The notes under the pieces: model-generated
What the model was told of the DNA's origin: nothing
Seen by the model: the letters and a program-made list of their open reading frames with translations, nothing else
The model's database searches: none
Position numbers and translations under genes: made by a program
Shown: positions 3,704-52,000 of the stretch, piece after piece
How positions within the stretch are numbered: the first letter of the stretch is position 1
Layout: each line of letters begins with the position of its first letter
Assembly (NCBI GenBank): GCA_005799025.1
Contig: SYHX01000055.1
Span: 21,641 to 85,640, forward strand
Source of the DNA: Bacteroidota bacterium
GTDB lineage: Bacteria; Bacteroidota; Bacteroidia; UBA7662
DNA length: 64,000 nt
Direction: 5' to 3'

Positions 3704-5893
3704 ATGAACCGCCTATCTACGCTTATGTTTCGCCCCCTGTTCATTTTCACTGCCCTATGGTGCATGGCTCCCCTCGCCCGCGCGGATAAAGGCATGTGGC
3801 TACCCATCCAAATCGCCAAGATTGAGGACCGCATGAAAGAAGCCGGCTTCCAATTATCCGCCTCGGACCTCTATCAAATTAATCAGGCCGCAGTGAAAGA
3901 TGCTATCGTTCGATTGGGTGGGGGTTTCTGTACCGCGGAAATCGTATCGGACTCGGGCCTGGTGCTGACCAATCACCACTGCGCTTACGATTTGATTCAG
4001 AACCACAGCTCGGTGGAGAAGGACTACCTCACCAACGGATTTTGGGCTATGACACGGGCAGAAGAATTGCCAAACCCCGGTCTCACAGCATCCACCTTGG
4101 TGCGTATGGAGGACATCACCAAGCGAATGAACGATTCCCTTCAGGGTGTTGCCGAGGGTCAGCGATCCGCGGTAATCGTCCGAGTGGGGAAAATCATCAC
4201 CGACGAAATCGCCAAAGAGAAAAAAGGCTACCAAGGAGATGTGCGGGCCATATTCTACGGCAATCAATTCATCCTATCCGTGTATATGGTATACAAAGAT
4301 GTTCGCCTTGTCGGAGCGCCCCCCAGCAGCGTAGGCAAGTTTGGAGGAGACACCGACAATTGGATGTGGCCACGGCATACTGGAGATTTTTCGGTATTGC
4401 GCATTTACACCGGACCAGGTGGTGAAGCGGCAGAATACGATAGTCTTCTTAACATTCCTCTCAAACCCAATCGTTACCTGGCCGTTTGTACATCAGGGGT
4501 TCGTAACGGGGATTATACTATGATAATGGGGTATCCCGGCACCACCAACCGATACCTCAGCGCCGATAACCTGGACTTCAACCTGAATACCGTGAACATG
4601 ATGGTGGAAGACATGGTCGGAGCCCGCATGCAGGCTTACAAAGAAGATATGGACAAAGACGATAAAATTCGTATTGCATTGGCTTCTACCTACGCTTCAG
4701 GTATGAATACCTACAAATACTACCAAGGCCAAACCCTGGGCCTACGCAGGGATGGATTGGGTGAGAAAAAAAGAACCTACGAAAACGGACTACGTCAATG
4801 GATAGAATCCGATCCAAGCCGCAAGGCCGAATACGGCACACCCCTCGAAAGCCTCGGCGCAATTCTCGCCGCTTACCAAAACGACTCACGCAAAATCATT
4901 TATTTTCGTCAGGCCCTCGGTAACCAGGCCTTTGCGCGCCATTACCGCCTTTTGTCCGATTTGCAGAAGCAGCTTGAAGCCTCTCCCAAGGACAAAGCCA
5001 AGATTAATGCAGAAGCGAATAAAGCAAGAAGCAGCATGAAGGAAAACATGGCGGAGTACTTTGCTTCCACCGAACAGAAAGCCTTTGCCCGTATGCTTCG
5101 CACCTATCTACAACGTATTTCTGTTCAAGACCGTCCTCCCTTCCTCACTGCATTATTGGCTGATTCCGACGGAGATGACGAGAAAGATAAAGTCAAAGAA
5201 ATAGCCAAAAACGTGTTCAAAAATTCATTGTTAGCCAATCCCGATTTGTTGGAAATTTTTCTACAGAACCCATCGATCAAGGTTTGGAAAAAAGATCCCG
5301 GTGTCAACCTTGCAGCCGCTATTTCGGATTATTCCAACAACGTACTCATGCCCTTGGAGCGCAAGGCCCAAGGAGAACAGGCCCCGATTCGTCGCAAACT
5401 TATGGCCGCCATGTTAGCCTATCAAAGCAACGAAATATTTGCACCAGATGCTAATTCCACCCTGCGAATGACCTACGGAAACGTCAAACCCTACGTTCCC
5501 CGAGATGCTGTGGACTATACCTGGTACACCACTCATCGCGGTATCCTGCAGAAAGAAGATCCCAAAAACGAAGAATTCATCGTTCCGGGCAAACTCAAGG
5601 AGGATTTAGAGAAAGGTGATTTTGCGCCCTACGGCAGGGATGATGAATTGGTAACCTGCTTCATCTCCAACAACGATATCACGGGAGGCAACAGCGGTAG
5701 CCCCGTGATGAATGCGCGTGCAGAATTGGTGGGCATTGCCTTCGATGGCAACTGGGAATCCATGACAGGAGACTTAATGTTCAATCCAGCCATGCAACGC
5801 ACCATCAGCGTGGACATCCGTTATGTACTCTATATCATCGATCGTTTTGCGGGCGCAGGACACCTGGTCCGTGAAATGAAGCTGGTTCCTTAG
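3704..5893 (+). CDS. S46 family serine peptidase (dipeptidyl-peptidase 7/11-like)
   Basis: Signal peptide MNRLSTLMFRPLFIFTALWCMAPLARA. S46 hallmarks are present: DKGMWLP, the catalytic His in LVLTNHHCAYD, and the catalytic Ser in DITGGNSGSPVMN. Length is 729 aa. Confidence 0.9.
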   Translation: MNRLSTLMFRPLFIFTALWCMAPLARADKGMWLPIQIAKIEDRMKEAGFQLSASDLYQINQAAVKDAIVRLGGGFCTAEIVSDSGLVLTNHHCAYDLIQNHSSVEKDYLTNGFWAMTRAEELPNPGLTASTLVRMEDITKRMNDSLQGVAEGQRSAVIVRVGKIITDEIAKEKKGYQGDVRAIFYGNQFILSVYMVYKDVRLVGAPPSSVGKFGGDTDNWMWPRHTGDFSVLRIYTGPGGEAAEYDSLLNIPLKPNRYLAVCTSGVRNGDYTMIMGYPGTTNRYLSADNLDFNLNTVNMMVEDMVGARMQAYKEDMDKDDKIRIALASTYASGMNTYKYYQGQTLGLRRDGLGEKKRTYENGLRQWIESDPSRKAEYGTPLESLGAILAAYQNDSRKIIYFRQALGNQAFARHYRLLSDLQKQLEASPKDKAKINAEANKARSSMKENMAEYFASTEQKAFARMLRTYLQRISVQDRPPFLTALLADSDGDDEKDKVKEIAKNVFKNSLLANPDLLEIFLQNPSIKVWKKDPGVNLAAAISDYSNNVLMPLERKAQGEQAPIRRKLMAAMLAYQSNEIFAPDANSTLRMTYGNVKPYVPRDAVDYTWYTTHRGILQKEDPKNEEFIVPGKLKEDLEKGDFAPYGRDDELVTCFISNNDITGGNSGSPVMNARAELVGIAFDGNWESMTGDLMFNPAMQRTISVDIRYVLYIIDRFAGAGHLVREMKLVP

Positions 5894-9292: not shown

Positions 9293-10312
9293 TTAACGGT
9301 ACAATACCTGCAGCAAGGTCTGACCGACTGCTTTGAGTGTACGCTTCGAAACGATATCCACCTTATCGGCCCGGGTATGCCAATGGGGCGGAAATCCTGT
9401 GGAGCCCTCCGATCGTAAGTCGATAATATCCACCATAGGAATCCCTGCAATGGTATTGACGTAATAATGATCGTCGGTAACTGGCTGACAAGGAACGGAA
9501 ACAAATAAATCTCCATAGCCTAGGGCCTGGGCATTTTGCCAAATTTGTCGGGTCCATTCCGGGGCAAATTGCAAGGAATGCCCCTCCCAGCAAAACCGAG
9601 CATCCACCGCCCCCACCATATCCAACAAAATTCCTTTGGCGGCCCTGTAGCCAGCCGCATGAGGATGCTTGGACCAATATTGGGCTCCAATTCCGTAGGA
9701 ATCCTTGACCTCAGACGCTCCGTAATCTTCCAAATCAAAAAAAACCAAGTCTATCCCCATATCCTTGGGCAATGAATCCAGGTGCCTGCTCAGTTCCAAC
9801 AAAACCGCTACCCCTGAAGCGCCATCGTTCGCTCCATCAAATGTTGCTTTGGGCGTAGCCGGATCCATATCGGCCAAGGGTCGTGTGTCCCAATGGGCCG
9901 CAAGAACCAAACGTTTTTCGGCCTTAGGGTGCAGCGAAGCAATCAGGTTGCGAAGTTCAAAAGTCTTCCCGTCATGCATGGTTAAGCGGTCTTTCTGTTC
10001 AATGACTTGAAGTCCGCGTTGTTTCAAGATTTGGACCATCCAATCCCCGCAATCTCGGTGAGCCTTGGTGCCCGGGATTCGAGGGCCAAATGCAACCTGC
10101 CTTTCAACCCAAGCCAATGCTGAATCTCCTTGAAAATCAGGAACTAAAACCGAGGAAATTTCGCTGGGAAGGGGCTGAGAATCCAGCTCGTTCCCCTTCT
10201 CCTCCCAGCGGCAACTTTGCATAAGAGCAATGCCCACGAAAACAGATAGTAAGAGAATTCTGCGCGCTGGTCTTCTATGGAAACCCGGGATTTTCAAAAC
10301 AAAAAAAATCAT
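9293..10312 (-). CDS. M28 family zinc peptidase (aminopeptidase / glutaminyl-cyclase-like) lipoprotein
   Basis: It carries the motifs LAAHWDTRPLAD, FDGANDGASGVAVLLELSRHL and DLVFFDLEDYG. The likely start is the internal ATG at 10312, which gives a lipoprotein-type signal (MIFFVLK...GIALMQSC) and avoids overlap with the cysS 3' end. Confidence 0.8.
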   Translation of the reverse strand: MIFFVLKIPGFHRRPARRILLLSVFVGIALMQSCRWEEKGNELDSQPLPSEISSVLVPDFQGDSALAWVERQVAFGPRIPGTKAHRDCGDWMVQILKQRGLQVIEQKDRLTMHDGKTFELRNLIASLHPKAEKRLVLAAHWDTRPLADMDPATPKATFDGANDGASGVAVLLELSRHLDSLPKDMGIDLVFFDLEDYGASEVKDSYGIGAQYWSKHPHAAGYRAAKGILLDMVGAVDARFCWEGHSLQFAPEWTRQIWQNAQALGYGDLFVSVPCQPVTDDHYYVNTIAGIPMVDIIDLRSEGSTGFPPHWHTRADKVDIVSKRTLKAVGQTLLQVLYR

Positions 10313-10349
10313 TGCTAGAAACGATACTATTTTACGTTTTCGATTGCGT

Positions 10350-11942
10350 TCAACCCAATGACCACTGACTGCCTTCCTTGCCATCCATCACCTTGATTCC
10401 AGCTTCGTTGAGTGCATTACGAATCAAATCGCTTTGAGCCCAGTTTTTGGAGTCTTTGGCTTGTTGCCTCAAATCCAAAATCAATTTCATGGCAGCTTCC
10501 AAAGCAGGGCTTAAGGAAGCGTCGCAACCTTGATCCGATAAATCGAATCCAAGTATATCCGTAACGTACACTTTGACCGTTCCTACAAGAGCATTCCAAT
10601 CGTCTGGAGTAACCACGGTTTTCCCCGATTTCACGGACTGAAATTCATTCAACAATTCATACCCCAAGGCGATCAAGATTGGTGTGTTAAGGTCATCGTT
10701 CAAGGCGGCGTAAGCTTTGGCTTCAAAAACTGTAATGTTCAAAATACTGCCAGAGTTATCTGCAATCTCCTTCCCCGCAACCGAAGGAGCATCGTTATGC
10801 AATGCTGATGCCGTAGGAGTGTAAGCTATCAACTCTTGAAGGCCTTGGATCCAACGCTTATAACCTTTGGCCGAAGCAGAGAGCGCCCCATCACTGAAAT
10901 CCAAAGTGCTGCGATATTGCGCTTGTAGGATAAAGAAACGAATACTCATAGGATCATAGGCCTGCGATAGCAATGGATGGTTGCCATTAAACAAATCGTC
11001 CAAATTGATGAAATTACCCAAAGACTTACCCATCTTCTGACCATTGATGGTCACCATATTGTTATGAACCCAATATCGGCAAGGAGCGCAGTCATGGCAA
11101 GCCGTCGTTTGAGCCATTTCACTTTCGTGGTGAGGAAAGAGCAAATCCATGCCGCCTCCGTGAATATCAAAAGGCGCATCCAAATACTTCACCCCCATTG
11201 CCGAGCATTCGATATGCCATCCCGGGAATCCAGGTCCCCACGGCGAATTCCAACGCATGATATGCTGCGGCTCAGCATTCTTCCACAGCGCAAAGTCTTC
11301 GGGCTTACGCTTCTCGGACTGACCCGCCAAGGCCCTGCGTTCGTTCCCTGCCCCTGCAACCAATTCATCCACCACTCTTCCGGACAAGACCCCGTATGGA
11401 AATTTAGCGCGGTAGGCTTCCAGATCGAAGTAAACCGACCCAGTGGACTCGTAAGCAAAACCTTTACGAATAAGCTCTTCGATCATTTCGATTTGTTCTG
11501 GGATATGCCCAGAGGCTCTTGGTTCTATCGATGGAGGCTGATTGCCTAACAAATCCATCGCTTTGTGAAAAGCAAGGGTGTAGAGCTGAACCAATTCCAT
11601 GGGCTCAAGCCTCTCCAAACGGGCTCTTTGGGCGATCTTATCCTCACCCTCGTCAGCATCGTCCACCAAATGCCCTACGTCCGTGATATTACGAACATAA
11701 CGGACCTTGTAACCCAAATGCCTCAGGTATCTGCTTAACACATCAAAAGTCACGTAGGGTCGGGCATGCCCCAAATGAGGTGGGCCGTAAACCGTTGGAC
11801 CGCAAACATACATTCCAACATGCGGAGCCTTCAAGGCCATAAAGGGCTCCTTGGTTCTACTCAATGTATTGTAAAGATGCAATGTTCCTATCTTCAGAGT
11901 TGTTCCCTTGGCTGGCGATTCAGAAAATGCAAATTGACTCAT
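10350..11942 (-). CDS. cysS: Cysteine--tRNA ligase
   Basis: Class I aaRS HIGH motif (PHLGHARPYV), KMSKS motif (KMGKSLGN), and MYVCGPTVYG near the N-terminus. Length is 530 aa. Confidence 0.95.
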   Translation of the reverse strand: MSQFAFSESPAKGTTLKIGTLHLYNTLSRTKEPFMALKAPHVGMYVCGPTVYGPPHLGHARPYVTFDVLSRYLRHLGYKVRYVRNITDVGHLVDDADEGEDKIAQRARLERLEPMELVQLYTLAFHKAMDLLGNQPPSIEPRASGHIPEQIEMIEELIRKGFAYESTGSVYFDLEAYRAKFPYGVLSGRVVDELVAGAGNERRALAGQSEKRKPEDFALWKNAEPQHIMRWNSPWGPGFPGWHIECSAMGVKYLDAPFDIHGGGMDLLFPHHESEMAQTTACHDCAPCRYWVHNNMVTINGQKMGKSLGNFINLDDLFNGNHPLLSQAYDPMSIRFFILQAQYRSTLDFSDGALSASAKGYKRWIQGLQELIAYTPTASALHNDAPSVAGKEIADNSGSILNITVFEAKAYAALNDDLNTPILIALGYELLNEFQSVKSGKTVVTPDDWNALVGTVKVYVTDILGFDLSDQGCDASLSPALEAAMKLILDLRQQAKDSKNWAQSDLIRNALNEAGIKVMDGKEGSQWSLG

Positions 11943-11971: not shown

Positions 11972-13243
11972 TTATCGACCCAGCACCGCCACCACAGGAT
12001 AGTGATCGGAGTAACAAAGCCGAACAACTTCATGTGCTAAAACTGGGAATCGTGGGTCAACCATAACATGATCGATCCGAAAACTCGGAAAACCACGGGC
12101 ATAGGTATTTCCATTCCCCTTGCCTCTACGCTCAAAACTGTCGTTCAACTTACTCTGAATGCGTTTGGCCGCAAAAGAATAAGGCAAATCATTGAAATCT
12201 CCGGTAATCAATACAGGATAGGGAGACTCCTCCATGAATACCCTGATTTGATCCGATTGCTCAGCGCGGAGTCTTGCGCTTGAGGCAATTTTACGAAGAA
12301 TCCCTTTTACAGTCTTTTGGGAACTATCACTTTTCAAATCCAAGGCCTGAACAGGACTTAATTCTGGGGGAGAAATTCGATTGGAAGCCAAATGAACATT
12401 CAACCAACGAAGGGTATCTCTGGCCATGAGAATATCAGCCCACATCATACCCGTATTATGGCCACGTTCGCCTAAGTTCTGATATCCATGATTCATTACT
12501 GGCCATCGGGTTAGCATCACCATGCCTCCTACCCATGACCTAAAATGTCCAGATCCTTCCTGGACATGATCCTTAAACTTAAGGTGTATAAGGCGAGACT
12601 CAGCAGATAATGAGGCATCCAATGAATACAAAAAAGGCCGGCGCTTCGCATCTTGACCAAGTAAGGTGTAACCTCGCAATCTAGGATGAAGCATTAAACT
12701 TCTTAATACATCAGGCCTACTTGGCTCCCAGCTGATAAAGTCCTGCAATCCAACAAAATCAGGTTGAACCACGTCCAAAAGTTTAATAAAAAAATCCCTT
12801 GAAGAAGAAATGGACTTAGGCGTTTCCTCTTGAGGATTATCATTATTGAAGTTACCCACATTGTAGGAAATTATTTTCCAGTTTCTCTGTGAGTCGAAAG
12901 GAGGCTTTTGAAAATCGGCTTGGACCAAAGCGCGGGTATAAGGCGTTAAATATGAATGCCATGGCCATTTCCAATATACAGAATGCACTTGAAATCCCAA
13001 GGCGATAACGACGAAGGAAATCCAAAATCGATGATTCTTTCGAACCAACCATAACACCGAACTAATAATCAATCCTGTGAGCAAAGGATAGTACAGAAAG
13101 CCCGCTAAGGCTAAGGGAGCAAACCAGCGCGGATCCAGCCAAGGGATAGCATAAACTCCGAGCATCGCCAAGGCCAAGAGTAGGTTAATTCCTGTCAGGG
13201 TTGCACGCAGGCTTCTCCATAGGAAATTTGCTTGAGGTCTCAT
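11972..13243 (-). CDS. Endonuclease/exonuclease/phosphatase (EEP) family protein with N-terminal transmembrane region
   Basis: About three N-terminal TM helices precede an EEP fold with WKIISYNVGNF at the start of the catalytic domain and SDHYPVVAVL at the C-terminus. The start ATG overlaps the stop of the upstream rhomboid gene (ATGA). Confidence 0.75.
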   Translation of the reverse strand: MRPQANFLWRSLRATLTGINLLLALAMLGVYAIPWLDPRWFAPLALAGFLYYPLLTGLIISSVLWLVRKNHRFWISFVVIALGFQVHSVYWKWPWHSYLTPYTRALVQADFQKPPFDSQRNWKIISYNVGNFNNDNPQEETPKSISSSRDFFIKLLDVVQPDFVGLQDFISWEPSRPDVLRSLMLHPRLRGYTLLGQDAKRRPFLYSLDASLSAESRLIHLKFKDHVQEGSGHFRSWVGGMVMLTRWPVMNHGYQNLGERGHNTGMMWADILMARDTLRWLNVHLASNRISPPELSPVQALDLKSDSSQKTVKGILRKIASSARLRAEQSDQIRVFMEESPYPVLITGDFNDLPYSFAAKRIQSKLNDSFERRGKGNGNTYARGFPSFRIDHVMVDPRFPVLAHEVVRLCYSDHYPVVAVLGR

Positions 13244-14070
13244 AAACGATGGTGCTGATCAAGCCATTGCTTCTCGCTTGCTTTCAAAGAATTAAATCCG
13301 CTTTTCGAAATTTTATCCAATAAACGATCGGTTTCAGATTGAATAAAATTGGAGTTCTTGGATTCTACTCTTATTGATTGACTTTTGGATCCTAAATTCC
13401 AGGAAAAAAGCTGGAATTGACCCTGCAAATGGCGCAAATAACCGTACCCCCACAAAGCCCCTCCGAGGTGGGCCCAATGCCCGCCAGAATTAGCCAAAAA
13501 CAAACCCGTAACATCATATAATAACAAAGCTACCCCTAACCAACGCAAACGAATAGGCAAGATTCCAAACAATCGAACCTCAAAATCTGGAGCCAGCAAT
13601 ACCGAAGCCCAGAAAAATGCCATCACCGCTGCTGATGCTCCAATTAAAGGTGGGGCATTCGCGGATTGTTCAATCCCCCCTGCGAGCCACCACCTTGACA
13701 GCCCTGTACCCAACCAGAACAACAAGGCCCCTGCCAATGCACCACCTCCATAAAACATCAAAATCACCCTTTGTCCCAAAAAACCAACCAAAAAATGAGC
13801 GGCCCAATACAACAAAAGCATATTCCACAACAAATGCCACAATCCTTGATGGCTCACCGAGTAAGTGAACAACGTCCACGGCTTCCAAAGGCATTGAAGC
13901 GGATAAGCCGGCAACGCCATCCAGCTCAGGATAAACGCCCTTGGATCGAACCAAGAGGATACCCACAGCACCATAAATACCAATACATTGACCGCTAACA
14001 AATGCTCAATCCGACCCCATCGATTCCATAGGTCTCTGGCCTCGTTCGCAAGGTGAGAAGCTCGATTCAT
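13240..14070 (-). CDS. Rhomboid family intramembrane serine protease
   Basis: Polytopic membrane protein with the Ser motif GASAAVMAFF and the His in AHLGGALWGY, plus a soluble C-terminal extension of about 60 aa. Confidence 0.8.
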   Translation of the reverse strand: MNRASHLANEARDLWNRWGRIEHLLAVNVLVFMVLWVSSWFDPRAFILSWMALPAYPLQCLWKPWTLFTYSVSHQGLWHLLWNMLLLYWAAHFLVGFLGQRVILMFYGGGALAGALLFWLGTGLSRWWLAGGIEQSANAPPLIGASAAVMAFFWASVLLAPDFEVRLFGILPIRLRWLGVALLLYDVTGLFLANSGGHWAHLGGALWGYGYLRHLQGQFQLFSWNLGSKSQSIRVESKNSNFIQSETDRLLDKISKSGFNSLKASEKQWLDQHHRL

Positions 14071-14789
14071 TCCCAGTGGCTATCCGATCGACCAAACCAA
14101 CGAACCATTGCAAAACCAAAAAGCATGCCGCCCAGATGAGCAAAATGAGCCACATTATCCGATGGATTGGCCTGGACCACAGCTAACAATTCAAAGGCCA
14201 CGTACATCACCGCCAGGTATTTAGCTTTGACCGGAACAAAGAAGAAAAGATAGAGATAATTGTTGGGAAACATAGTGGCGAAGGCGATCCATATTCCGGC
14301 AACAGCTCCGCTGGCACCAATAATATTAGGCCCGCTTAACAAATTTTCTTTTTCATTTTCCAAATCCAACAAGGTCCCTGCATTAGCCATCTTGATTTGA
14401 TCCTCAATCCGCAACAATTCTGGTCGTATATCCATCAAGAAAATGACCAAATAATGCAGAAAAGCAGCACCAACCCCTGCCACCAAATAAAAGGTCAAAA
14501 ACCGGGATGAGCCCCACACATTCTCAAGGATACTCCCGAACATCCAAAAGGAGAACATATTAAACAGCAAATGCTCAAAATTCCCGTGCATAAACAAGTG
14601 TGTCAAGGGCTGCCAATAGGCATAGGCCTTTGAACTAGGTAAATGCATTCCCAAAACCTCTATCAAGTCCATGCCAAGGCCCGTCTTTAACGCATAATTT
14701 CCTAGATAACAGAGACCGTTTATGATGACCATGTTTTTGACCACCGGAGGAAGGAATTCAAACCTTCCCGGGCTAATTGGATTGCTCAT
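14067..14789 (-). CDS. Rhomboid family intramembrane serine protease
   Basis: GASGAVAGIWIAF (Ser) and AHFAHLGGMLFGF (His). It forms a tandem with the downstream rhomboid, and its stop overlaps that gene's start (ATGA). Confidence 0.8.
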   Translation of the reverse strand: MSNPISPGRFEFLPPVVKNMVIINGLCYLGNYALKTGLGMDLIEVLGMHLPSSKAYAYWQPLTHLFMHGNFEHLLFNMFSFWMFGSILENVWGSSRFLTFYLVAGVGAAFLHYLVIFLMDIRPELLRIEDQIKMANAGTLLDLENEKENLLSGPNIIGASGAVAGIWIAFATMFPNNYLYLFFFVPVKAKYLAVMYVAFELLAVVQANPSDNVAHFAHLGGMLFGFAMVRWFGRSDSHWE

Positions 14790-17111: not shown

Positions 17112-17660
17112 ATGAACCCTTTCTTTTCCTTACGCCTCCCGGTTTTCCAGACCCTGATGATTTTGCTATTCGGAGCAACCTTCTTTCTTCCACAAATTGC
17201 GAATTCGCAACCAGGTGGACTCAAAGTAGGCGAAAAAGCCCCCGAAATTATTCAAACCGGGGTTGATGGCAAAGACCTTAAATTAAGCAATCTCAAAGGC
17301 AAAATGGTCCTCATAGACTTCTGGGCTTCCTGGTGTCGGCCATGCCGCTACGAAAACCCCAATGTTGTCAAGGCCTACGAGTCCTTCAAAAATTCCAAAT
17401 TCAAATCTGGCGTAGGCTTTACGGTGTTCTCCGTGTCCCTCGATCAACAGAAAGACCCTTGGCTTCGGGCGATCACTGAAGACAAACTGGTTTGGAAAGA
17501 GCATGTATCGGACCTCAAAGGTTGGGGTAATGCCGCTGGCCAAATGTATGGGGTCACAGGCATCCCAATGAGCTATCTCATTGATGGAAATGGCGTGATT
17601 ATTGCCAAAAACCTTAGGGGAGCAGCATTAGAAGAGACTCTTAAGTTGCATTTGAAATAG
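17112..17660 (+). CDS. TlpA/ResA-like periplasmic thiol:disulfide oxidoreductase (thioredoxin fold)
   Basis: Signal peptide followed by LIDFWASWCRPCRYENP, which contains the thioredoxin WCxxC active site. Length is 182 aa. Confidence 0.85.
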   Translation: MNPFFSLRLPVFQTLMILLFGATFFLPQIANSQPGGLKVGEKAPEIIQTGVDGKDLKLSNLKGKMVLIDFWASWCRPCRYENPNVVKAYESFKNSKFKSGVGFTVFSVSLDQQKDPWLRAITEDKLVWKEHVSDLKGWGNAAGQMYGVTGIPMSYLIDGNGVIIAKNLRGAALEETLKLHLK

Positions 17661-17683: not shown

Positions 17684-20566
17684 TTAAGGGGTATGATAGT
17701 TTCTGCCATCCCTATGCCCTGAACTTATTTGTGCGGTGGAATTGGAGGGCTGGTAAGAACCGTTTACATCCCCAGCACACAAGACTGCCCAGCCCAACTG
17801 CACGGAGCTAAGTCCGTTCCAAGTAAATTGAGCGGGTTCAACGAGCCAATCAGCTACTGCAAAATTGTTTATAAGGCCTGTCAAACGCCTGCTAATCAAC
17901 AAAGCATCCGTACCGTTGGTCACCAAATTACCGTTGACATCCCCGGACCTGATACGCAAAGAAGTCCAAGTGATTCCACCGCCGAAATAGCGGGCCACCT
18001 GCAAGGCATCCGATGCATTCACCCCACCCCATAGGCTGAGGGGACTGACTTCAAGCACAAAATCTCCACCGCCACCCTGCGGAACGACAAAGAGATAATT
18101 CCCCAACGTATCCGTGGTATCCACCGCCACCACTTGACCTGTACCTATTCGTCGAAGCCTGCATACTGCCCCTTGCAAATACAAAGGCGGGCTGCGGTCG
18201 TACGAAACACGACCCGAAAGCGTAGGTCCCAGACCGCATAGACGAATCAGCAAAACTTGATTTCCTTGGGCTTGCATGGCCACCGGCATAGGACTTCCCG
18301 AGCTCTGGATCCAATGAGCCCCTATTGCTGTATCCAGCCTCAAAGTTCCCATAGATCCGGCGGTTGTTAAGGACAAAACCAACAAAGACGATGCGTTGGT
18401 TGCCCTTGGCGAACCCGACCACGAAATGGTCCAAGAACCGGCAGCGCTGGTCCATTGGAGCGGTCCCCAAAAGGAATCAACCCATCCGCCTGGTGGTGTC
18501 CCAAAAGAACCAAGATCTCCCACCAATCTAATTTGCCAAGCGATTACCGCCGGCCGGGAGTTGGTCTGTATTCGGAGGATTGCGTTGCTTCCCTGACAAA
18601 CCGAATCCGCCACCATCGAAACACAAGCCGTGCCCAAACTAACCTGCTGAATCAATAGGCTATCGCATCCCCCTATGTTCCTGAGGGTGTCCACGTAGGT
18701 GCCCGATGAGGAAAAAATTCTTCCCCCTGGACCAACCACAGAAACACAGCCTTGCAAGGCAAAGGTGGAATCTGTTGCACGACATCCCGTGAGATTGTTA
18801 TTGCGGGTAACCGTGGAACTGCCTTTGAGGATAATCTGTTCCGGGTCAAGGCTGAAAGTAGAGACTGTTCCTGAAACGCTAAAGGCTTGCACAGTTGTTC
18901 CTGCTTGCAACCATATCGTTTGATTAGGAATCCCTGTATTCGAAAAGGAAAGGCGTATCGGGATTTTGTTCCGAAAAGTTGGAGTGACTGACGGCGTGGT
19001 CACTGATTGAGCCACCTGAACCCACAAATTATTGCCGGATTGATTCCAAGTCAAGCTGTAGGTTGGATGCCCCTGTCCGTAAATCCAATCCTGAAAAAAA
19101 GGCTGTAAATTAATCCCACTCCCCGCTTCCAGGTATTGCCTAAATTCATTGGTGGTTGCAACCGCATGCTGTCTTCCAAGCAAATACTGCCTCGCAGCCC
19201 TGAAGAAAACCGTATCCCCTAACTCATGCCGTAACATATGCAAAACACAAGCCCCCTTTTTGTAAGTCAATGCTGAACTAAATATGCGATTTTCGTCCGC
19301 TCCTGTTGGAACGTAGACCGATGCGTTGGTCACCGATCTTGCCGAGGATTGCGCCGAGGTCATCCAAGAATTTGCGGAACTTTGTCCCAAAGCCGCCTGG
19401 CGGTACAGGTATTCCCCATACGATGCCCAACCCTCATTCAGCCAAATATCACTCCATGTAGCGCAGGTCACAAGATCGCCAAACCACTGATGAGCAAGCT
19501 CATGAGATACCAAATCGGTGCTGAAGCCGCCCATGGTGCTCATGGTCTGGTGTTCCATCCCTCCCCCCAGAGGGGCCATCATGTGGCCATATTTCTCGGT
19601 ACGAAATGGATAGGTTATCCATTGCCCGGAAAAGCGCTCCAGCATATCCGATGTTTGATTCAAATTATTCAACCAGAAGTTGAGGCAGCTCTGTCCCGAA
19701 CTGTTGTTGGCATTGTACACCCAATGTTGAATCAAAACCGAATCCCCCGGAACCGGCCTTGCATAATTCAAATACTCCGTGTAAGGAGCCACCGAAAAGG
19801 CAATCAAATAAAAAGCCTGCGGATAACGGGTCCTCCATTCGAAGCGGCTACGGTTGTTGGGAAGAATTTGGGTGGAAAACAACAAACCGTTGGAAGCTAC
19901 TTTGTTGGGATTGGCACAGGAACCCACGAAATCCACGGAATCAATCTTATCCCAAAGATCCTGTTTACAAGGAAACCAATCCGGCGCTCCAAAGGGCTCG
20001 GATAGGGTCCAAGTCGCACGAACCCCCCAGGTCGAAGAAGCCGCCGAGGTCACCCCTGCAAAGAAACCTGTGCCCGAAGGGATTCCTCCGTAGAAAACCC
20101 TGCATTCAAGATTGGATCCAACCTGCAAGGCCTGGTTCAAAGGAAATTTAACCACCTCTCCTACACGGTTCAATTGAGAGGCCAAATAACGCTGCCCGTT
20201 GAAAACCACCGAATCAATAGTCAAAAACGACCGTAATTCAAACCAAAAAGTATCCATGGCTCCCTGCAGGACAATCGCTTTGAAAAGGACATTGCCACTT
20301 AGGGCAGTTGAAGCCGTGGTTACATTCAAATCAAAACGGTAATAATGAATGTCGTAGACATCTGCTCCCCGGTTGACAGCCGCGGCTCTTCCTAATCCAC
20401 TTTCGTGCCAGAGCCTGCTCCTTTGCATGGCACCTAACTTGGCCTCAGCACAGCCATGCTGTTCAATAGTCTGCGCCCACGAAGGTGAGCATCCAAGGAG
20501 AATGCCAAGCCAAAAAAAAGCTCCTAAGGCAACATGAACTATGCCCTGTGTTTGAATCCCTTTCAT
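17684..20566 (-). CDS. M1 family zinc aminopeptidase (gluzincin) with C-terminal CarboxypepD_reg-like and dockerin-like module
   Basis: Signal peptide, then HELAHQWFGDLVTCATWSDIWLNEGWASYGEY (the HExxH...E zinc site) and GGMEHQTM (GxMEN-like exopeptidase motif). The C-terminal ~110 aa has the pattern WGGVNASDALQVARYF....SGDVNGNLVTNGTDALLISRRL...GDVNGSYQP. The first ATG is at 20566 (the track start is TTG at 20572). Confidence 0.85.
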   Translation of the reverse strand: MKGIQTQGIVHVALGAFFWLGILLGCSPSWAQTIEQHGCAEAKLGAMQRSRLWHESGLGRAAAVNRGADVYDIHYYRFDLNVTTASTALSGNVLFKAIVLQGAMDTFWFELRSFLTIDSVVFNGQRYLASQLNRVGEVVKFPLNQALQVGSNLECRVFYGGIPSGTGFFAGVTSAASSTWGVRATWTLSEPFGAPDWFPCKQDLWDKIDSVDFVGSCANPNKVASNGLLFSTQILPNNRSRFEWRTRYPQAFYLIAFSVAPYTEYLNYARPVPGDSVLIQHWVYNANNSSGQSCLNFWLNNLNQTSDMLERFSGQWITYPFRTEKYGHMMAPLGGGMEHQTMSTMGGFSTDLVSHELAHQWFGDLVTCATWSDIWLNEGWASYGEYLYRQAALGQSSANSWMTSAQSSARSVTNASVYVPTGADENRIFSSALTYKKGACVLHMLRHELGDTVFFRAARQYLLGRQHAVATTNEFRQYLEAGSGINLQPFFQDWIYGQGHPTYSLTWNQSGNNLWVQVAQSVTTPSVTPTFRNKIPIRLSFSNTGIPNQTIWLQAGTTVQAFSVSGTVSTFSLDPEQIILKGSSTVTRNNNLTGCRATDSTFALQGCVSVVGPGGRIFSSSGTYVDTLRNIGGCDSLLIQQVSLGTACVSMVADSVCQGSNAILRIQTNSRPAVIAWQIRLVGDLGSFGTPPGGWVDSFWGPLQWTSAAGSWTISWSGSPRATNASSLLVLSLTTAGSMGTLRLDTAIGAHWIQSSGSPMPVAMQAQGNQVLLIRLCGLGPTLSGRVSYDRSPPLYLQGAVCRLRRIGTGQVVAVDTTDTLGNYLFVVPQGGGGDFVLEVSPLSLWGGVNASDALQVARYFGGGITWTSLRIRSGDVNGNLVTNGTDALLISRRLTGLINNFAVADWLVEPAQFTWNGLSSVQLGWAVLCAGDVNGSYQPSNSTAQISSGHRDGRNYHTP

Positions 20567-20630
20567 ACCCAAAGAAACGTACTTACCTCTCTGGAACGAA
20601 AGATAGAAAATTAAAAAAACTTAAGGCTTC

Positions 20631-31082: not shown

Positions 31083-31169
31083 GGCTTATATCCTCAAAGT
31101 AACCCATACAACCCATGAGTTCACCCTTATGAGCGCAATTTGACTTATTTTTATGACAATCCAATAACC

Positions 31170-34100
31170 ATGAACTATTTGATTTCGCGAAGCAAGGCGC
31201 TTTTGAGCAATATCATTTTTTTCATACTTACCAGCGGCCTAACCGCCTTCAATTCTAACGTGTTTGCGCAAGCACAAAGATCAAGCAGCGGCCCATTTCC
31301 GATGCCTCATCAGGGCGGCGTTCAAGAACTACCTGCTATTCCCGAGAATCCTGAGTCGTTGGCGCAAATTTGGGGCTCTTACCCCTCCTTTGACAGTAGG
31401 ATTTACCTAGCCTTGGGGGTGCACCGTTTACCCAGCACGGCTGAATGGAAAAAAATGGAAGAACTTGGACTGAACTATCAGGGGTATATGCCGCCTTTGG
31501 CGTATTTGGTTTCCGTCCCTGAACAGCCAAGCCCGGCTTTGCTCGAGTATTTGTCCGGTGAACGTGGTCTTTTTGCGGCCTGTGATCTGCTGAGGGTGGA
31601 CGCCAAACGGTCCATGGAGCTGACTCTTCCCTCGGCAGGACCTGGAATTTTGACTAAAAACGGCCTCAAAGGACTGCATATCGTGCTCCATCCTGGTGCG
31701 AACCTTGAAAGGTTCAAGGAATATTTGAGGAGCCTGCCCTTGGTGGAGTCTATGGAGCCTGCACACGGACAATTGGGGTTGAGCCTCTATGCCAATGATA
31801 CGGATGCTGAAATTCTCCTCGCCCACCCAGCCGTTCAATTCATGGAACCTGCCCGAGGGCCAGGAGAACCCGAAGATCGGGAAGCCCGCAGTTTGCATCG
31901 AGGTCACGCCATTGATAATAAAATGGAAGGGGGTACAAGGTATAATGGAAGCGGCATAACGGTTGCCATCGCAGATGATGGCGCCATTGGTCCCCACATT
32001 GATTTTAATGGGAGATTAACGCAATATTCAACCAATACCTCTTCGGCCAATACCCACGGTGATATGGTCTCTGGGATCGCTGTAGGTTCAGGTAATTTGA
32101 ATCCAACCCGGATTGGGGCAGCTTACGGTTCTTACCTGCACATGTACAGTATATCGAGCTACCCCCATATCGCCAATGCAGTTGCTAATTACAACAGCTT
32201 GGGCACGACCCTGACTTCCACATCGTATTCAGAGGTTAACGGCGGGGTTTACAACAGCAGCGCCGTGACTATCGATGGGCAAATTCAAAGCAATGCCATG
32301 TTGATGCATATATTCTCGGCCGGGAATGCTGGCACAGCCGATCATGGTTACGGGGCCGGGACCGGTTGGGGCAACATTACCGGTGGGTACAAGGCCGCCA
32401 AAAATGTAATCGCTGTGGGCAATTTACGCAACACCGATGCGCTCGAAAGCTCATCCAGCAGAGGCCCTGCCAAAGACGGTCGCATCAAACCCGATATCTG
32501 TGCCAACGGATACAACCAAATGTCCACCGCACCCAACAACACCTACCAAACCGGAGGAGGAACCTCAGCGGCATCTCCCTCGGTGATGGGAACCCTTGCC
32601 CAAATCAGCCACGGCTACCGAGCCATGAACAACAATACTGTGCCACCCACAGCCTTGCTCAAAGCAGCCATCCTGAATACCGCTGAAGACTTGGGTAATC
32701 CTGGGCCCGATTATCAATTTGGTTGGGGCCGGATCAACGCATTGCGCGCTATCCAATTGTTACAAAACAACCGTTATGTTACCGGAAATCTTGCAGTCAA
32801 CGATAGTATCAACCATGTCATTGATGTTCCAGCCAATGTTCGCCAATTAAGGGTGATGGTGTATTGGGCCGACTATGCAGGGATCGCCAATGCGACCCGT
32901 GCCTTGGTGAATAACCTTGATCTCAAGGTCCTTACCCCATCCAGCGCAACCCAATTACCTTTGAAATTGGACCCCAGTCCCAATACCGCTTCTTTGAGCA
33001 GTGTTGCGGTACCTGGCCTGGATTCCCTTAATAATGTGGAGCAGGTCCGCATCAACAACCCAGCAGCGGGAACCTATACGGCTCGCATCATGGGTCAAGG
33101 AATTGCACAAGGTCCGCAAGTTTATTGGTTGGTTTACGAATGGCATACCGACCAAATCACCATGACCTATCCCATGGGCGGCGAGTCTTTCGTCAGCGGA
33201 GAAACCGAAATCCTCCGATGGGATGCCACCGGAAATACGGGGCCATTCACCTTGCAATGGAGCTCCAACAACGGACAAAGCTGGACTACGATTGCAAGCA
33301 ATCTGGCAGCATCAGTTCGGCATTACAGCTGGGTGGTGCCTACGGTCACCAGCGGACAAATCAAAATTCGGGTAAGTTCCGGGGCAATCGTCAGTGAAAG
33401 CTCTCAACCTTTGAACATCAGTCCTTTGGTCTCCGGTATTGCCTTTCCTACGGTTTGTTCAACCTCCTTGAGCTTGTCATGGTCCGCCGTATCCGGCGCG
33501 GGTCGTTATGTCATTCATCGCCTAGGTTTAAGGTACATGGACTCCGTGGGCACCACGACCTCTACCACCTTTACAGTCAATGGCACCAACCTCAGTTCGG
33601 AAGATTGGTACGCGATTACCCCCATCGGCACCAACAATGATTGGAGAGGAAGGCGTTCCAATGCAGTGGCCAAACCTTTGACAGGCCCTATCAACTGCGC
33701 GGGGGGTTCCACTATTGGTGGTACCTTGGTTTATGGCAATACGGCTCAAAGCCCCATGACCAATACCATCATCGTGCTCAAACAGAACAATACCGAAATT
33801 GGCAGGGATACCACCGATGCGCAGGGCATTTTCAGGCTTGGTAATAGTCCTGCCGGGACTTATACCTTGGAATACCAGACCAACAAGGCTTGGGGCGGGG
33901 TCAATGCCACCGATGCCTTGGGCATTAACCGGCATTTCAGCAACGTGGCCACGCTGAGTGGATTCTATGCAATGGCAGCCGATCTCAATGCGAGTAATTC
34001 AATCAATGCAACGGACGCATTAATTACTGCTCGTAGATTTTCTAATCTTATAACCAGTATACCCGCAGGGAATTGGATTTTTGAGACAGGAACGTTGAAC

Positions 34101-34190
34101 CTTATCAACGGTGGCACCTACAACAACCTTATACTTAAATCGCTGACTTTCGGGGATGTAAACGGCTCCTATATCCCACCAGGGAATTAA
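31170..34190 (+). CDS. S8 family subtilisin-like serine peptidase with Fn3-like, CarboxypepD_reg-like and dockerin-like C-terminal modules
   Basis: Signal peptide, then catalytic Asp (VAIADDGAIGPHID), His (HGDMVSGIAVG) and Ser (GGGTSAASPSVMG). The C-terminus has an Fn3-like LSLSWSAVSGAGRYVI segment, then TDAQGIFRLGNSPAGTYTLEY, then WGGVNATDALGINRHF....ADLNASNSINATDALITARRF...GDVNGSYIPPGN. The first ATG is at 31170. Confidence 0.9.
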   Translation: MNYLISRSKALLSNIIFFILTSGLTAFNSNVFAQAQRSSSGPFPMPHQGGVQELPAIPENPESLAQIWGSYPSFDSRIYLALGVHRLPSTAEWKKMEELGLNYQGYMPPLAYLVSVPEQPSPALLEYLSGERGLFAACDLLRVDAKRSMELTLPSAGPGILTKNGLKGLHIVLHPGANLERFKEYLRSLPLVESMEPAHGQLGLSLYANDTDAEILLAHPAVQFMEPARGPGEPEDREARSLHRGHAIDNKMEGGTRYNGSGITVAIADDGAIGPHIDFNGRLTQYSTNTSSANTHGDMVSGIAVGSGNLNPTRIGAAYGSYLHMYSISSYPHIANAVANYNSLGTTLTSTSYSEVNGGVYNSSAVTIDGQIQSNAMLMHIFSAGNAGTADHGYGAGTGWGNITGGYKAAKNVIAVGNLRNTDALESSSSRGPAKDGRIKPDICANGYNQMSTAPNNTYQTGGGTSAASPSVMGTLAQISHGYRAMNNNTVPPTALLKAAILNTAEDLGNPGPDYQFGWGRINALRAIQLLQNNRYVTGNLAVNDSINHVIDVPANVRQLRVMVYWADYAGIANATRALVNNLDLKVLTPSSATQLPLKLDPSPNTASLSSVAVPGLDSLNNVEQVRINNPAAGTYTARIMGQGIAQGPQVYWLVYEWHTDQITMTYPMGGESFVSGETEILRWDATGNTGPFTLQWSSNNGQSWTTIASNLAASVRHYSWVVPTVTSGQIKIRVSSGAIVSESSQPLNISPLVSGIAFPTVCSTSLSLSWSAVSGAGRYVIHRLGLRYMDSVGTTTSTTFTVNGTNLSSEDWYAITPIGTNNDWRGRRSNAVAKPLTGPINCAGGSTIGGTLVYGNTAQSPMTNTIIVLKQNNTEIGRDTTDAQGIFRLGNSPAGTYTLEYQTNKAWGGVNATDALGINRHFSNVATLSGFYAMAADLNASNSINATDALITARRFSNLITSIPAGNWIFETGTLNLINGGTYNNLILKSLTFGDVNGSYIPPGN

Positions 34191-42015: not shown

Positions 42016-42603
42016 ATGAAAAAGACCCTAACAACCAAAAACCTCATGAGCATCAGCCTTGTTGTATCAATGCTTATGGCCCATAGAATGTATGCTCAGA
42101 ACACAGGCGTCATCAACACCAACCTCAATGTTGGTGCAACCGTCCTAGCTCAACTCAAATTAACCAACAATGCGGATGTTCAATTTGGCAATCTATCTGC
42201 GACAACTCCCGGTCATGTTTTCCTATCGCCCACAGGAAGCGGCCACACCAATACCGGGGTCAGCACCTCGGTTGGCAAATTCACGGTGGAAGGATCTACC
42301 ACCGGCTCAGTCAAAGTCACATGGCCTGCCAACATTTCTCTCAACTCCTCGGTAGGAGGCAATACGTTGGTTTACAATTTACAGGTCAACGGAAATGGAA
42401 GCGACCTGGCCTCTGGATCCACCATCCTTGGAACCGGAGGCCTTGGGGTAGCCTCCACGGCAGATATTACCCTTGTGGCCGGCAAATACTACCTCTATGT
42501 AGGGGGAAAAATCGGAGGCAACGCCGGCAGCCCCGCCAATCTCAATGCCCAAGGCATAGGGGTTTATTCCGGTATCGCCAATTTCAGAGCAGAGTACAAT
42601 TGA
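42016..42603 (+). CDS. DUF4402 / spore-coat-protein-U (SCPU)-like secreted protein (candidate major pilin of archaic chaperone-usher system)
   Basis: Signal peptide ...AHRMYAQ. The mature region is low-complexity and rich in G/T/S/N/V with alternating beta pattern (...DVQFGNLSATTPG..., ...LGTGGLGVASTADITLVAGKYYLYVGGKIG...) and ends GIGVYSGIANFRAEYN. This matches my recollection of DUF4402/SCPU family architecture. Confidence 0.5.
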   Translation: MKKTLTTKNLMSISLVVSMLMAHRMYAQNTGVINTNLNVGATVLAQLKLTNNADVQFGNLSATTPGHVFLSPTGSGHTNTGVSTSVGKFTVEGSTTGSVKVTWPANISLNSSVGGNTLVYNLQVNGNGSDLASGSTILGTGGLGVASTADITLVAGKYYLYVGGKIGGNAGSPANLNAQGIGVYSGIANFRAEYN

Positions 42604-42615
42604 TCCTTTCACCAC

Positions 42616-42650
42616 CCCCCTCCTCGGTTGGGTGGAGGGGGATTTATTTA
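42616..42650 (+). terminator. Rho-independent terminator / attenuator hairpin after the DUF4402-like gene
   Basis: An 8-bp all-G/C stem cccccTCC / GGAggggg (42616-42623 paired with 42634-42641) encloses a 10-nt loop (tcggttgggt) and is immediately followed by the T-rich tract atttatttaaat. Confidence 0.5.
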
Positions 42651-42683
42651 AATAAAAAAACTATATATCAAAATACCATCATA

Positions 42684-50431: not shown

Positions 50432-52000
50432 ATGCCTTTAACCGTGAAAGCTAATTTTTGGCCTATTTACTTCTTCGTAGGTCATCTGTTGTTATGCTAT
50501 GTAAATATAAGCAAGGCTCAAATGCCTGCGGGGCGTATTCTTGCAGGGTATTATCATAATTGGAATACCGCATCTGCACCTCATGTACCTCTGGATCAAT
50601 CCCATAATGCGTACAATCTTATTCATGTCGCCTTTGCCACTCCAATTCCCGGAACTTTGTACAAAATGGAATTCAATCCAGTAATGTACAATCCTACAAA
50701 TTTCAAAACTCAAATTCAAACGGTACAAGCCGCTGGCAAAAAGGTATTCATTAGCCTTGGAGGGGGTCTACACCCGGTGCGCATGGTGAATCTTGCCCAA
50801 AAAGACACCTTTGTAAATACCATATCCGCTATTTTGGATTATTACGGATTTGATGGTATCGATATTGATTTTGAGGGAACTTCGTTATTGGCCGCTGGTA
50901 ATAACATCAACCAACCTGCAGATTCCGGTGCCCATTACCTCATTCGCGCAATCCGACAACTTATGGAGCGTCATCGCAACATATATCAGCGAAAGTTAGG
51001 CCTCACGATGGCTCCAGAAACAGCTTTTGTTCAGGGCGGTATGGCCGCGTATGGAGGTATTTGGGGAGCATATCTACCCGTTATTCAAGCACTTAGAGAT
51101 TCGTTGGACCTTATGCAGGTACAACTCTACAATTCTGGTACTATGCCAGCGCTTAATGGTCAGAACTATGCAGCAGGTACCGCAGATTTTATTGTGGCCC
51201 TCTCAGAGGCTTTAATTAGGGGATTCCAAACCTCAGGGGGCTTGTTTCTTGGCCTGCGACCCCAGCAAATTGCTGTTGGTCTCCCCGCCTGTCCTATGGC
51301 GGCAGGTTCAGGCTATACCGATACCACCACGGTAGGTGCTGCAATGCGTTATTTGTTAGGAAGAGGCCCACGAACCGGACAATATATTTTAATCCAGAAC
51401 GGCGGTTATCCTCAACTGGGTGGGATGATGACATGGAGCATCCCTTGGGATGCTACGGCATCATGTGCAGTCCCCTATGAATTTGCACATCAATTTCAGC
51501 GGATTTTTTCATTATCACCTCCGGTTTTTGGTAGAACCCTGTATGCCAATAGTGCTCTAACCCCCTTATCTAATACAAGTATTCGTCTTGTGCAACAAAA
51601 CCTTGCCTTTGCTTCAGATACTACAGATTTTATGGGAAATTTTGATTTAGGATATATTACTCCTGGTTCTTATGGTATTGAATACCGAACATCCGTGCTT
51701 TGGGGCGGAGTCAATGCAACAGATGCATTGTTAACTGCCAGGCATTTCAGTAACATTTCTCTGTTGAACGGGATTCATCTGCAAGCGGCGGACGTCAACG
51801 CTTCAGGAACCGTGAATGCTACCGATGCCCTGACGATATCCCGCAGATTTTCCAATTTGATTCCTAATTTTCCGGCAGGCGACTGGCTATGGGAAAACAG
51901 AACCCTCCTGGTAGGACCTGGTGGAAATTACCAGAATTTAGTATGGCGCGGACTTACCTTTGGAGATGTCAATGGGTCGTATATTCCAAACGCATTATAA
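50432..52000 (+). CDS. Glycoside hydrolase family 18 (chitinase-like) with C-terminal CarboxypepD_reg-like and dockerin-like module
   Basis: Signal peptide (…CYVNISKAQ) followed by the GH18 catalytic motif in YYGFDGIDIDFEG (DxxDxDxE). The C-terminus reads DTTDFMGNFDLGYITPGSYGIEY...WGGVNATDALLTARHF....ADVNASGTVNATDALTISRRF...GDVNGSYIPNAL. Confidence 0.8.
   Translation: MPLTVKANFWPIYFFVGHLLLCYVNISKAQMPAGRILAGYYHNWNTASAPHVPLDQSHNAYNLIHVAFATPIPGTLYKMEFNPVMYNPTNFKTQIQTVQAAGKKVFISLGGGLHPVRMVNLAQKDTFVNTISAILDYYGFDGIDIDFEGTSLLAAGNNINQPADSGAHYLIRAIRQLMERHRNIYQRKLGLTMAPETAFVQGGMAAYGGIWGAYLPVIQALRDSLDLMQVQLYNSGTMPALNGQNYAAGTADFIVALSEALIRGFQTSGGLFLGLRPQQIAVGLPACPMAAGSGYTDTTTVGAAMRYLLGRGPRTGQYILIQNGGYPQLGGMMTWSIPWDATASCAVPYEFAHQFQRIFSLSPPVFGRTLYANSALTPLSNTSIRLVQQNLAFASDTTDFMGNFDLGYITPGSYGIEYRTSVLWGGVNATDALLTARHFSNISLLNGIHLQAADVNASGTVNATDALTISRRFSNLIPNFPAGDWLWENRTLLVGPGGNYQNLVWRGLTFGDVNGSYIPNAL

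Follow-up and report, generated by a model that had tools for sequence, protein, structure and literature searches.

A dockerin with a putative split calcium loop, embedded in a beta-sandwich at the C-terminus of a secreted M1 aminopeptidase from a Bacteroidota bacterium

The M1 aminopeptidase and its C-terminal extension

The DNA analysed here is a stretch of 64,000 nucleotides (the window; positions 21,641 to 85,640 of contig SYHX01000055.1 in the Bacteroidota assembly GCA_005799025.1), in which a secreted M1 aminopeptidase ends in a module of about 160 amino acids (aa). The open reading frame (ORF) of the enzyme lies on the minus strand at 17684..20572 and encodes 962 aa from a TTG start, the last ~370 of which form a C-terminal extension. 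A public database copy (P0001) is 100% identical and starts two codons later, at the ATG at 20566, giving 960 aa. The catalytic region (aa ~40-588; 18809..20455, minus strand) was assigned from the Pfam Peptidase_M1 match and from its counterpart in shorter orthologues. Peptidase_M1 (PF01433) matches aa 352-496 in the Pfam scan with an E-value of 1.2e-31, and the zinc site HEXXH-X18-E can be read as HELAH-X18-E, so that both the hidden Markov model (HMM) and the zinc site identify the protein as an M1 aminopeptidase (gluzincin). The context of the catalytic Tyr (YKKG) is intact, and the exopeptidase motif, canonically GXMEN, is GGMEH (aa ~336-341, window 19500-19560). The N-terminus carries a hydrophobic stretch ending in SWAQ, which we take as a Sec-type signal peptide, as we do the similar stretches ending in AQ of the two other module carriers described below. 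A lipoprotein reading of 'LLGC' within the M1 signal peptide was rejected because the Cys is a Gly in the orthologue P0002 and other orthologues differ there.

The extension begins with a Cys-rich beta region (aa 596-650; 18623..18787, minus strand), which we regard as a linker domain; its strands are predicted by AlphaFold2 (AF2) with a predicted local distance difference test score (pLDDT) of 51-72, and its Cys residues are conserved across orthologues. A cohesin-like domain and the terminal module follow. The whole ~370-aa extension is kept in the five closest M1 orthologues, which share 71-100% identity. Among those listed, orthologues with less than 60% identity are ~610-710 aa long and align with just the catalytic 53-68% of the query, and most of them carry the type A sorting domain (PF18962), a type IX secretion system (T9SS) C-terminal domain (CTD). 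The exchange point between the extension and this CTD is identical in the inspected orthologues, immediately after 'LDPxxxILKG(T/S)S'. The whole extension stands where relatives have a surface-anchoring signal, and the presence of a CTD at the same junction in distant orthologues indicates that the extension and its module fit a localisation role. The original prediction had named M1 orthologues lacking the module, with no CTD to compensate, as the outcome that would speak against a conserved sorting role. This was not the outcome: close orthologues keep the module, and most of the distant ones listed carry the CTD.

Fold of the module and its calcium loops

The original prediction placed the same C-terminal module on the M1 protein as on other proteins of the window, and this was borne out. 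The peptide quoted in support is the C-terminus of ORF 17684-20572 (the residues elided there as '..' are SPLS), and a tblastn comparison of the last 200 aa with the window returned two further ORFs, each over ~165 aa. One, at 50399-52000 on the plus strand, encodes a Glyco_hydro_18 (GH18) protein (E 1.7e-24, 38% identity), and the other, at 31140-34190 on the plus strand, encodes a Peptidase_S8 (S8) subtilase (E 5.8e-20, 32% identity). Based on tblastn, Pfam, alignment and the graft test described below, the module spans aa 377-533 of the GH18 protein (51527..51997) and aa 859-1016 of the S8 protein (33714..34187). All three copies exceed the gathering score of Dockerin_1 (PF00404; 22.9 bits), with 29.3 bits for M1, 34.6 for GH18 and 24.7 for S8. 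Together, the tblastn E-values and the Dockerin_1 scores put the recurrence of the module far beyond chance and rule out chance or low complexity as the source of the likeness. Alignment of the copies puts the first residue of the conserved unit at aa 784 (window 18223); the start given previously, 18080, is ~143 nt too far downstream. The M1 copy had also been put forward as the best template for testing calcium binding; the GH18 copy scores higher, and the loops are intact in all three.

To describe the fold, we used an AF2 model of M1 aa 776-962 built from an alignment of 52 sequences, which had a mean pLDDT of 90.8 and a predicted TM-score of 0.81. The model places six strands at aa 784-843, helices at 853-863, 871-877 and 887-898, and three strands at 909-932. 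The N-terminal part (aa 784-847; 18032..18223, minus strand) would supply six strands of a transthyretin/CnaB (CarboxypepD_reg-like) beta-sandwich. The C-terminal part (aa 901-933; 17774..17872, minus strand) is predicted by AF2 and Foldseek to complete it with three strands, for which the pLDDT is 93-97 (model residues 134-157). Between them lies the dockerin (aa 848-900; 17873..18031, minus strand), consisting of a Trp and a half loop, helix 1, a short helix, loop 2 and helix 3. Because strands on both flanks form the sandwich in the model, the dockerin is best described as an insertion. Transthyretin-like Foldseek targets align over 80-100 residues, beyond the 64 residues of the N-terminal part alone, and the long alignments run across the insert, so that the match to transthyretin/CarboxypepD_reg/CnaB-like sandwiches extends over the whole domain. 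The insert itself has the three-helix dockerin fold, superimposing on type I dockerins at 1.2-1.8 Å with 34% identity. No PDB chain matched the whole module in the Foldseek search (best TM-score on the query 0.39), and the composite has no curated family in Pfam or NCBIfam. The carriers gave no match to the T9SS CTD models PF18962, TIGR04183 and TIGR04131 at E<=1, or at E<=0.01; the tail of a related protein (L014), included as a positive control, reached 39.3 bits with TIGR04183. On the model, the C-terminal ~160 aa are an 'X-dockerin', in which a type-I-like dockerin is predicted to sit between strand six and the last three strands of a sandwich.

The second calcium loop of the dockerin is complete, with 12 residues from D878 to D889 (DVNGNLVTNGTD; 17906..17941, minus strand) and with D, N, N, N and D at ligand positions 1, 3, 5, 9 and 12. 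The earlier description of this loop as dockerin-type holds, as it is a canonical EF-hand loop by Pfam match and residue frequencies in a domain above the Pfam gathering threshold. The first loop is present only from position 6 to position 12 (G849-D855, GGVNASD; 18008..18028, minus strand). In all 12 proteins scanned (the three window copies and nine relatives), the Dockerin_1 match starts at profile position 8, indicating that the first EF-hand loop lacks its beginning. We propose that the missing positions 1-5, with a flanking Tyr, are supplied by the terminal GDVNGSY (G934-Y940; 17753..17773, minus strand; pLDDT 94-97), in which the original prediction had overlooked the other half of the loop.

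This proposal was examined in a graft test, in which the terminal GDVNGS was joined directly to GGVNA(S/T)D before the Pfam scan. The Dockerin_1 score rose from 35.3 to 50.9 for the M1 copy, from 40.5 to 55.2 for GH18 and from 30.4 to 45.0 for S8, and the grafted match reached profile position 1-2. With a scrambled graft, the M1 copy scored 38.5, a gain of ~3 bits as compared with ~15 bits for the true graft. The composite loop D-V-N-G-S-G-G-V-N-A-S-D carries D, N, S, N and D at positions 1, 3, 5, 9 and 12, and DVNGS|GGVNATD is nearly identical to the loop-2 consensus of 104 non-redundant family modules, DVNGSGxVNSTD. Some positions in these frequencies are preset by the search pattern, whereas Asn at position 9 (92%) and the Trp before the half loop (91%) are free of it. 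In a metagenomic protein (P0243), both halves of loop 1 have decayed in each of three tandem modules (GDVLGSY with WGPVSQLN, etc.) and loop 2 is kept; this 616-aa protein has a signal peptide, the three modules and a T9SS CTD. By the graft test, loop 1 is complete in composition but not contiguous, in departure from the tandem contiguous loop-helix segments of a dockerin. From the ligand residues, the module is predicted to bind Ca2+, and Ca2+ would act as a clasp that pins the chain end to the dockerin and fixes the dockerin on the sandwich. A loop divided in this way should do away with the dual, two-fold symmetric binding of classical type I dockerins.

The chain continues beyond GDVNGSYQP for 20 aa (SNSTAQISSGHRDGRNYHTP; 17687..17746, minus strand) up to the stop codon at 17684-17686. 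This tail is longer than what follows the module in the other two window copies (5 residues after the Tyr), as previously claimed, although it measures 20 aa (22 after the Tyr) and not ~25. It proved variable among orthologues, in which its conservation had been in question. The residues after SYQP are SNSTSRVGSSAGHAQYRRTP in P0002, SNSTSRTSQGSGPNPSAATR in P0003 and SNSTSRGGGRGGETLRGTPERNP in P0004, whereas P0005 has AFSTGR and lacks the 20-aa tail; similar tails also occur in L001-L004. Orthologue identity to the window protein is 65-87% in the module and 20-50% in the tail, where SNST[AS] alone is conserved and the rest shows 0-6 identities over 15-18 positions. The tail is peculiar to the M1 lineage, other terminal-module proteins having 0-7 residues after the Tyr. 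We considered whether it could be the remnant of a lost cohesin or CTD and rejected this; the stop lies only 23 bp from a convergent thioredoxin-like gene (17112-17660), so the tail is no leftover of a longer domain. Most likely, it is a fast-evolving, dispensable extension. The AF2 pLDDT drops to 62 past model residue ~170, and the tail is probably disordered, which would make it a nuisance for constructs.

Module family, cohesins and scaffoldins

To find relatives, we searched 185,579 species-representative genomes for two strict peptide patterns and checked the matches by tblastn, which left 363 confirmed module stretches. The best 80 of these 363 loci all come from uncultured metagenome-assembled genomes (MAGs) of lakes, sediments and digesters. 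Nearly all of the 80 are labelled Bacteroidota or a subgroup, with a few Sphingomonadales and one Ignavibacteriales, and several genomes have five to twelve loci each among them. MAGs of the family Lentimicrobiaceae are among the carriers of the system. The label 'Sphingomonadales bacterium' is found on the MAGs VHBD01, VHAW01 and VHAX01, which contain close M1 orthologues with the module, and on these Lake Tanganyika bins it is probably a mis-assigned taxonomy. An exhaustive profile search over 1.84 billion representatives was also tried, but its counts (54,697, 15,369 and 3,307) are no measure of the module, as the search was swamped by giant tandem-repeat proteins and only P0243 and P0259 matched the module end to end. 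The giants (P0211-P0242) are up to 7,796 aa long, with up to 73 tandem prealbumin-like repeats that match the sandwich half and are unrelated to the dockerin.

Chain length beyond GDVNGSY is bimodal, at 0-7 aa in 28 ORFs and 221-244 aa in 36 ORFs; a length of 22 aa occurs in M1 orthologues only. Carriers of the short form are enzymes without a CTD (S8 and M43 peptidases, purple-acid/metallophosphatases), whereas carriers of the long form are non-catalytic proteins (fn3, PKD, DUF7619) ending in Por_Secre_tail. The module is thus not always the last domain, since a cohesin and a CTD follow it in 36-37 of the ~73 family ORFs. PF18962 and TIGR04183 match the ends of the long class, above threshold in three of the five proteins scanned, and P0202 and P0209 were already annotated with PF00963 and PF18962. 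The ~140 aa between module and CTD form a divergent cohesin, the profile of which matches the Archaeoglobus cohesin 2xdh with an E-value of 1.5e-8; one member of these CTD-proximal cohesins reaches the Pfam Cohesin family. Of the 33 genomes sampled, at least 8 combine the short and long classes in a single MAG.

Using local HMMs for the family cohesin and CTD, we found further arrangements. In at least nine loci, the gene immediately downstream of the module-cohesin-CTD gene encodes 2-4 cohesins in tandem (L016 2670-6155, L031 6924-10460, L033 6161-10468, L038 6177-9509, L044 5813-9169, L052 6164-9640, L065 6163-9516, L068 4275-5726 and L077 2467-4605), so that the two form a conserved scaffoldin gene pair. 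The tandem-cohesin protein of L044 itself ends in a CTD. L046 encodes a three-cohesin protein with the module at its end, and in enzymes or large proteins of L075, L023, L028 and L048 a cohesin lies just upstream of the module. Other proteins carry, in place of cohesin and CTD, a Cys/Trp-rich domain of ~210 aa after the module (L024 1097-1747, L079 5457-6077, P0154, L015 and L041), annotated in P0154 as PF09603 (Fibrobacter succinogenes major paralogous domain). In L017 and L062 (1364 and 1373 aa), the module is N-terminal, directly behind the signal peptide and ahead of ~1170 aa of repeated domains, showing that it is not confined to C-termini.

The M1 aminopeptidase may possess a cohesin of its own. 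The domain immediately upstream of the module (aa 651-783; 18224..18622, minus strand) was delineated with AF2, Foldseek and hhalign. The model, covering aa 596-790 and built from only six sequences, has a mean pLDDT of 74, with ~80-90 over most of aa 651-783. In a Foldseek search of the PDB with this domain, cohesins account for the top 41 of the 50 listed matches (E 1e-5 to 1.5e-3; TM-score on the target 0.44-0.64), among them the Clostridium perfringens glycosidase cohesins. By hhalign, the domain matches scaffoldin-type cohesins of the family weakly (E 0.004-0.02 over 103-106 columns) and CTD-proximal cohesins also weakly (E 0.08), with E-values of 0.004-0.09 across the comparisons with family cohesins. 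It shares with the scaffoldin-type cohesins a C-x-G start, an 'ISW' strand and an 'L.L.L...G...L..D' strand. Pfam finds no cohesin in aa 651-783, and a PDB profile search with the region returned chance matches only, none of them a cohesin. A word-indexed homologue search with it returned nothing, and as its own orthologues should have matched, this null is uninformative. Given that the cohesin beta-sandwich is recognizable in a medium-confidence model, we accept the cohesin fold of this domain with moderate confidence. Having its own cohesin-like domain, the M1 protein may accept another dockerin or self-associate.

Possible function and genomic context

The module is a real feature, and the system-level pattern is more interesting than the single M1 copy. 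From the domain identities, fold models, split-loop sequence logic, two architectural classes and their co-occurrence established here, we infer that the module binds cohesins and is located at the cell surface. We put the probability at about 0.6 that it is a Ca-dependent dockerin by which an enzyme plugs into cohesins of T9SS-anchored proteins or of scaffoldins. In such a system, the hydrolases (M1, GH18, S8, M43, metallophosphatase) would carry the plug at their very end, and the cohesins of non-catalytic CTD-ending proteins and of multi-cohesin scaffoldins would serve as sockets. The aminopeptidase would then be held in a multi-enzyme assembly at the cell surface and not anchored through its own CTD like its distant orthologues.

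Several points weigh against this proposal. The terminal-module enzymes have a signal peptide and no recognised outer-membrane route. Local HMMs detected neither a family-type cohesin nor a T9SS CTD across the 64-kb window, 7.8 kb of sequence beyond it and six loci of the closest MAGs (the scan covered the window, L001-L004, L026, L059 and L081). The cohesin-like domain of the M1 protein itself rests on a six-sequence, medium-confidence model and a weak profile match. The proximity of GDVNGS to GGVNASD in space is predicted from sequence rather than taken from model coordinates, and covariation between the half loops (position 9 versus position 2) gave a Fisher p of 0.18, the extraction being noisy and the sample pattern-biased. 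Dockerin-like modules without cohesin function are, moreover, described for many organisms (Peer et al. 2009, as related in PMC6487960 and PMC8542988).

The module could alternatively be an export or sorting device, either a new outer-membrane C-terminal signal or a handle for periplasmic docking and passenger export through T9SS. We consider this unlikely, although it would account for the replacement of the CTD by the module at the same junction in M1 orthologues and for the module's place 0-7 residues from the C-terminus in 28 enzyme-type proteins. It would also agree with three carriers within 64 kb, each with a signal peptide and no other export tag, and with potential partners that all bear CTDs. 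However, the module resembles neither the type A nor the type B CTD models. In the long class it is internal with a true CTD after it, and so is not the signal there, and the 20 extra variable residues tolerated after it in the M1 lineage speak against a signal that is recognised at the precise chain end. Export of passengers via T9SS has, to our knowledge, never been demonstrated, which also counts against such a device. Of the sorting role proposed in the original prediction, the part that stands is localisation; the module is not CTD-like and is internal in about half of its relatives, and its internal position ahead of a cohesin and a true CTD fits docking better than a 'sorting signal'.

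Nor do we find it probable that the module serves as a binding or spacer domain, stabilised by Ca2+ and lacking any cohesin partner in the host organism, for example a sandwich that binds polysaccharide or peptidoglycan and in which the EF-hands merely stabilise, as in SdrD B repeats. In its favour, no cohesin or CTD is detectable by sequence in the window or the closest-MAG loci. The best fold matches of the whole model are Ca-binding SdrD-B/CnaB stalk domains, the sandwich part recurs in huge tandem arrays of unrelated giant proteins, and some proteins consist of a signal peptide and the module alone (P0133, P0161, P0164). Against this stand the bona fide dockerin insert, with its Pfam score above threshold and its close superposition, the fusion or adjacency of the module to cohesins in dozens of related loci, and the cohesin-like fold of the M1 protein itself. 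That last domain raises yet another reading, in which the dockerin binds the protein's own cohesin-like domain, in cis (self-capped and inert) or in trans (head-to-tail oligomers). The cohesin-like fold directly precedes the module, the same order of cohesin and terminal module is seen in L075 and L046, and no other cohesin was found nearby. We nevertheless hold this very unlikely: the GH18 and S8 carriers contain no cohesin themselves and so need an external partner, the inter-domain linker appears very short for a cis complex, and the cohesin assignment of the M1 domain is weak at the sequence level.

A more elaborate combination, to which we attach only a slight probability, would join the split EF-hand as a Ca2+-operated clasp with 'hitch-hiking' through T9SS by cohesin-dockerin binding. 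At low Ca2+ the chain end would be free and the module loose; at the higher Ca2+ outside the cytoplasm the clasp would close and render the module competent for a cohesin. Terminal-module enzymes would then dock in the periplasm on the cohesin of a CTD-bearing partner and leave with it via T9SS. This route would explain the exchange of CTD for module in the M1 family.

Gram-positive cellulose degraders provide the textbook cases of cohesin-dockerin machines. Like the type I dockerins of C. thermocellum (PF00404; Xyn10B/Doc435, PDB 2ccl_B and 4dh2_D), the inserted domain passes the gathering score, superimposes in three helices, has a canonical 12-residue loop 2 and is C-terminal on secreted hydrolases. 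Unlike them, it takes positions 1-5 of loop 1 from the chain end ~80 residues later and sits inside another domain; it occurs in a Gram-negative Bacteroidota, on a cargo of peptidases, chitinase and phosphatase instead of cellulases. In known X-dockerin dyads (CipA XDoc, PDB 5g5d/5k39; R. flavefaciens; type II/III), a contiguous X module precedes the dockerin, whereas the sandwich of the window module is discontinuous, wraps the dockerin and contributes half a Ca loop. With the T9SS type A CTD (PF18962/TIGR04183), the module shares its position in the M1 family, its C-terminal place, an approximate beta-sandwich and its occurrence on secreted Bacteroidota hydrolases; it differs in giving no HMM match, in having a helical dockerin and in sharing long-class polypeptides with a true CTD. 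The glycosidase complexes of C. perfringens (PDB 2jh2, 2vo8, 2w1n) include an enzyme that bears a cohesin (GH84C), as proposed here for M1, and other enzymes that bear dockerins. These dockerins are contiguous, and the complexes belong to a Firmicute with sortase or non-covalent wall anchoring and no T9SS.

A comparable published scheme is that of 'Ca. Stygibacter' (Cloacimonadota), for which a cellulosome-like system was inferred from MAGs (Williams et al. 2021, PMC8542988). There, too, enzymes with signal peptides, among them a GH18 homologue and an S8 peptidase, have C-terminal dockerins, and surface attachment is ascribed to a T9SS-type CTD on a cohesin scaffoldin (PMC8542988). The phylum is different, and the split loop, the sandwich-embedded dockerin and the module-cohesin-CTD 'adaptor' are not reported in that work (PMC8542988). 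Also unlike Stygibacter, the Bacteroidota cohesins are mostly single and just before the CTD, with separate genes for 2-4 cohesins. Dockerins in Bacteroidetes have been noted previously (PMC6487960). We found no description of a sandwich-embedded split-loop dockerin or of module-cohesin-CTD proteins in the searchable literature, the coverage of which is incomplete. The pattern points to a large uncharacterised counterpart of the cellulosomal machines in uncultured freshwater, sediment and digester Bacteroidota, with sockets tied to type IX secretion and anchoring and with a cargo of enzymes that harvest protein, chitin and phosphate. If correct, it would represent a new structural solution, a single-mode, Ca-locked dockerin useful for designer scaffolds. 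It would also give a handle on how surface hydrolases are organised in abundant lake Bacteroidota, and a concrete test case for CTD-less proteins reaching the surface in T9SS organisms.

The other genes of the window are housekeeping genes (mutL, glnN, purL, cysS, ftsK, lolA, lnt and others), among which the module genes are scattered. A CotH-kinase-family protein of 781 aa with lamin-tail-like and 'choice-of-anchor X' domains is encoded 7.8 kb beyond window position 1 (L082/L083 5456-7801). Its C-terminal ~90 aa (SPNPFGEDLLLQF...KLVKGT) look CTD-like by eye and gave an E-value of 0.0013 with the local HMM; this candidate was set aside, as neither Pfam nor NCBIfam confirmed it. Two adjacent ORFs on the plus strand, 42321-43550 (409 aa) and 43453-46299 (948 aa), have no Pfam match. 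In the former, the true start is probably an internal Met that opens a signal peptide (MNKIILVMSLY...), and the latter ends in a CarboxypepD_reg-like motif, GYFEFNDLRPGLYKVWVD. Two rhomboid-family protease genes (13240-14070 and 14067-14789, both on the minus strand) follow one another in tandem, the stop of one overlapping the start of the other, and are flanked by mutL and a gene of the endonuclease/exonuclease/phosphatase family. Further peptidases, an S46 dipeptidyl-peptidase and an M28 enzyme, are encoded at 3704-5893 (plus strand) and 9293-10384 (minus strand), neither with the module or a CTD. The window as a whole is rich in protein-degrading enzymes.

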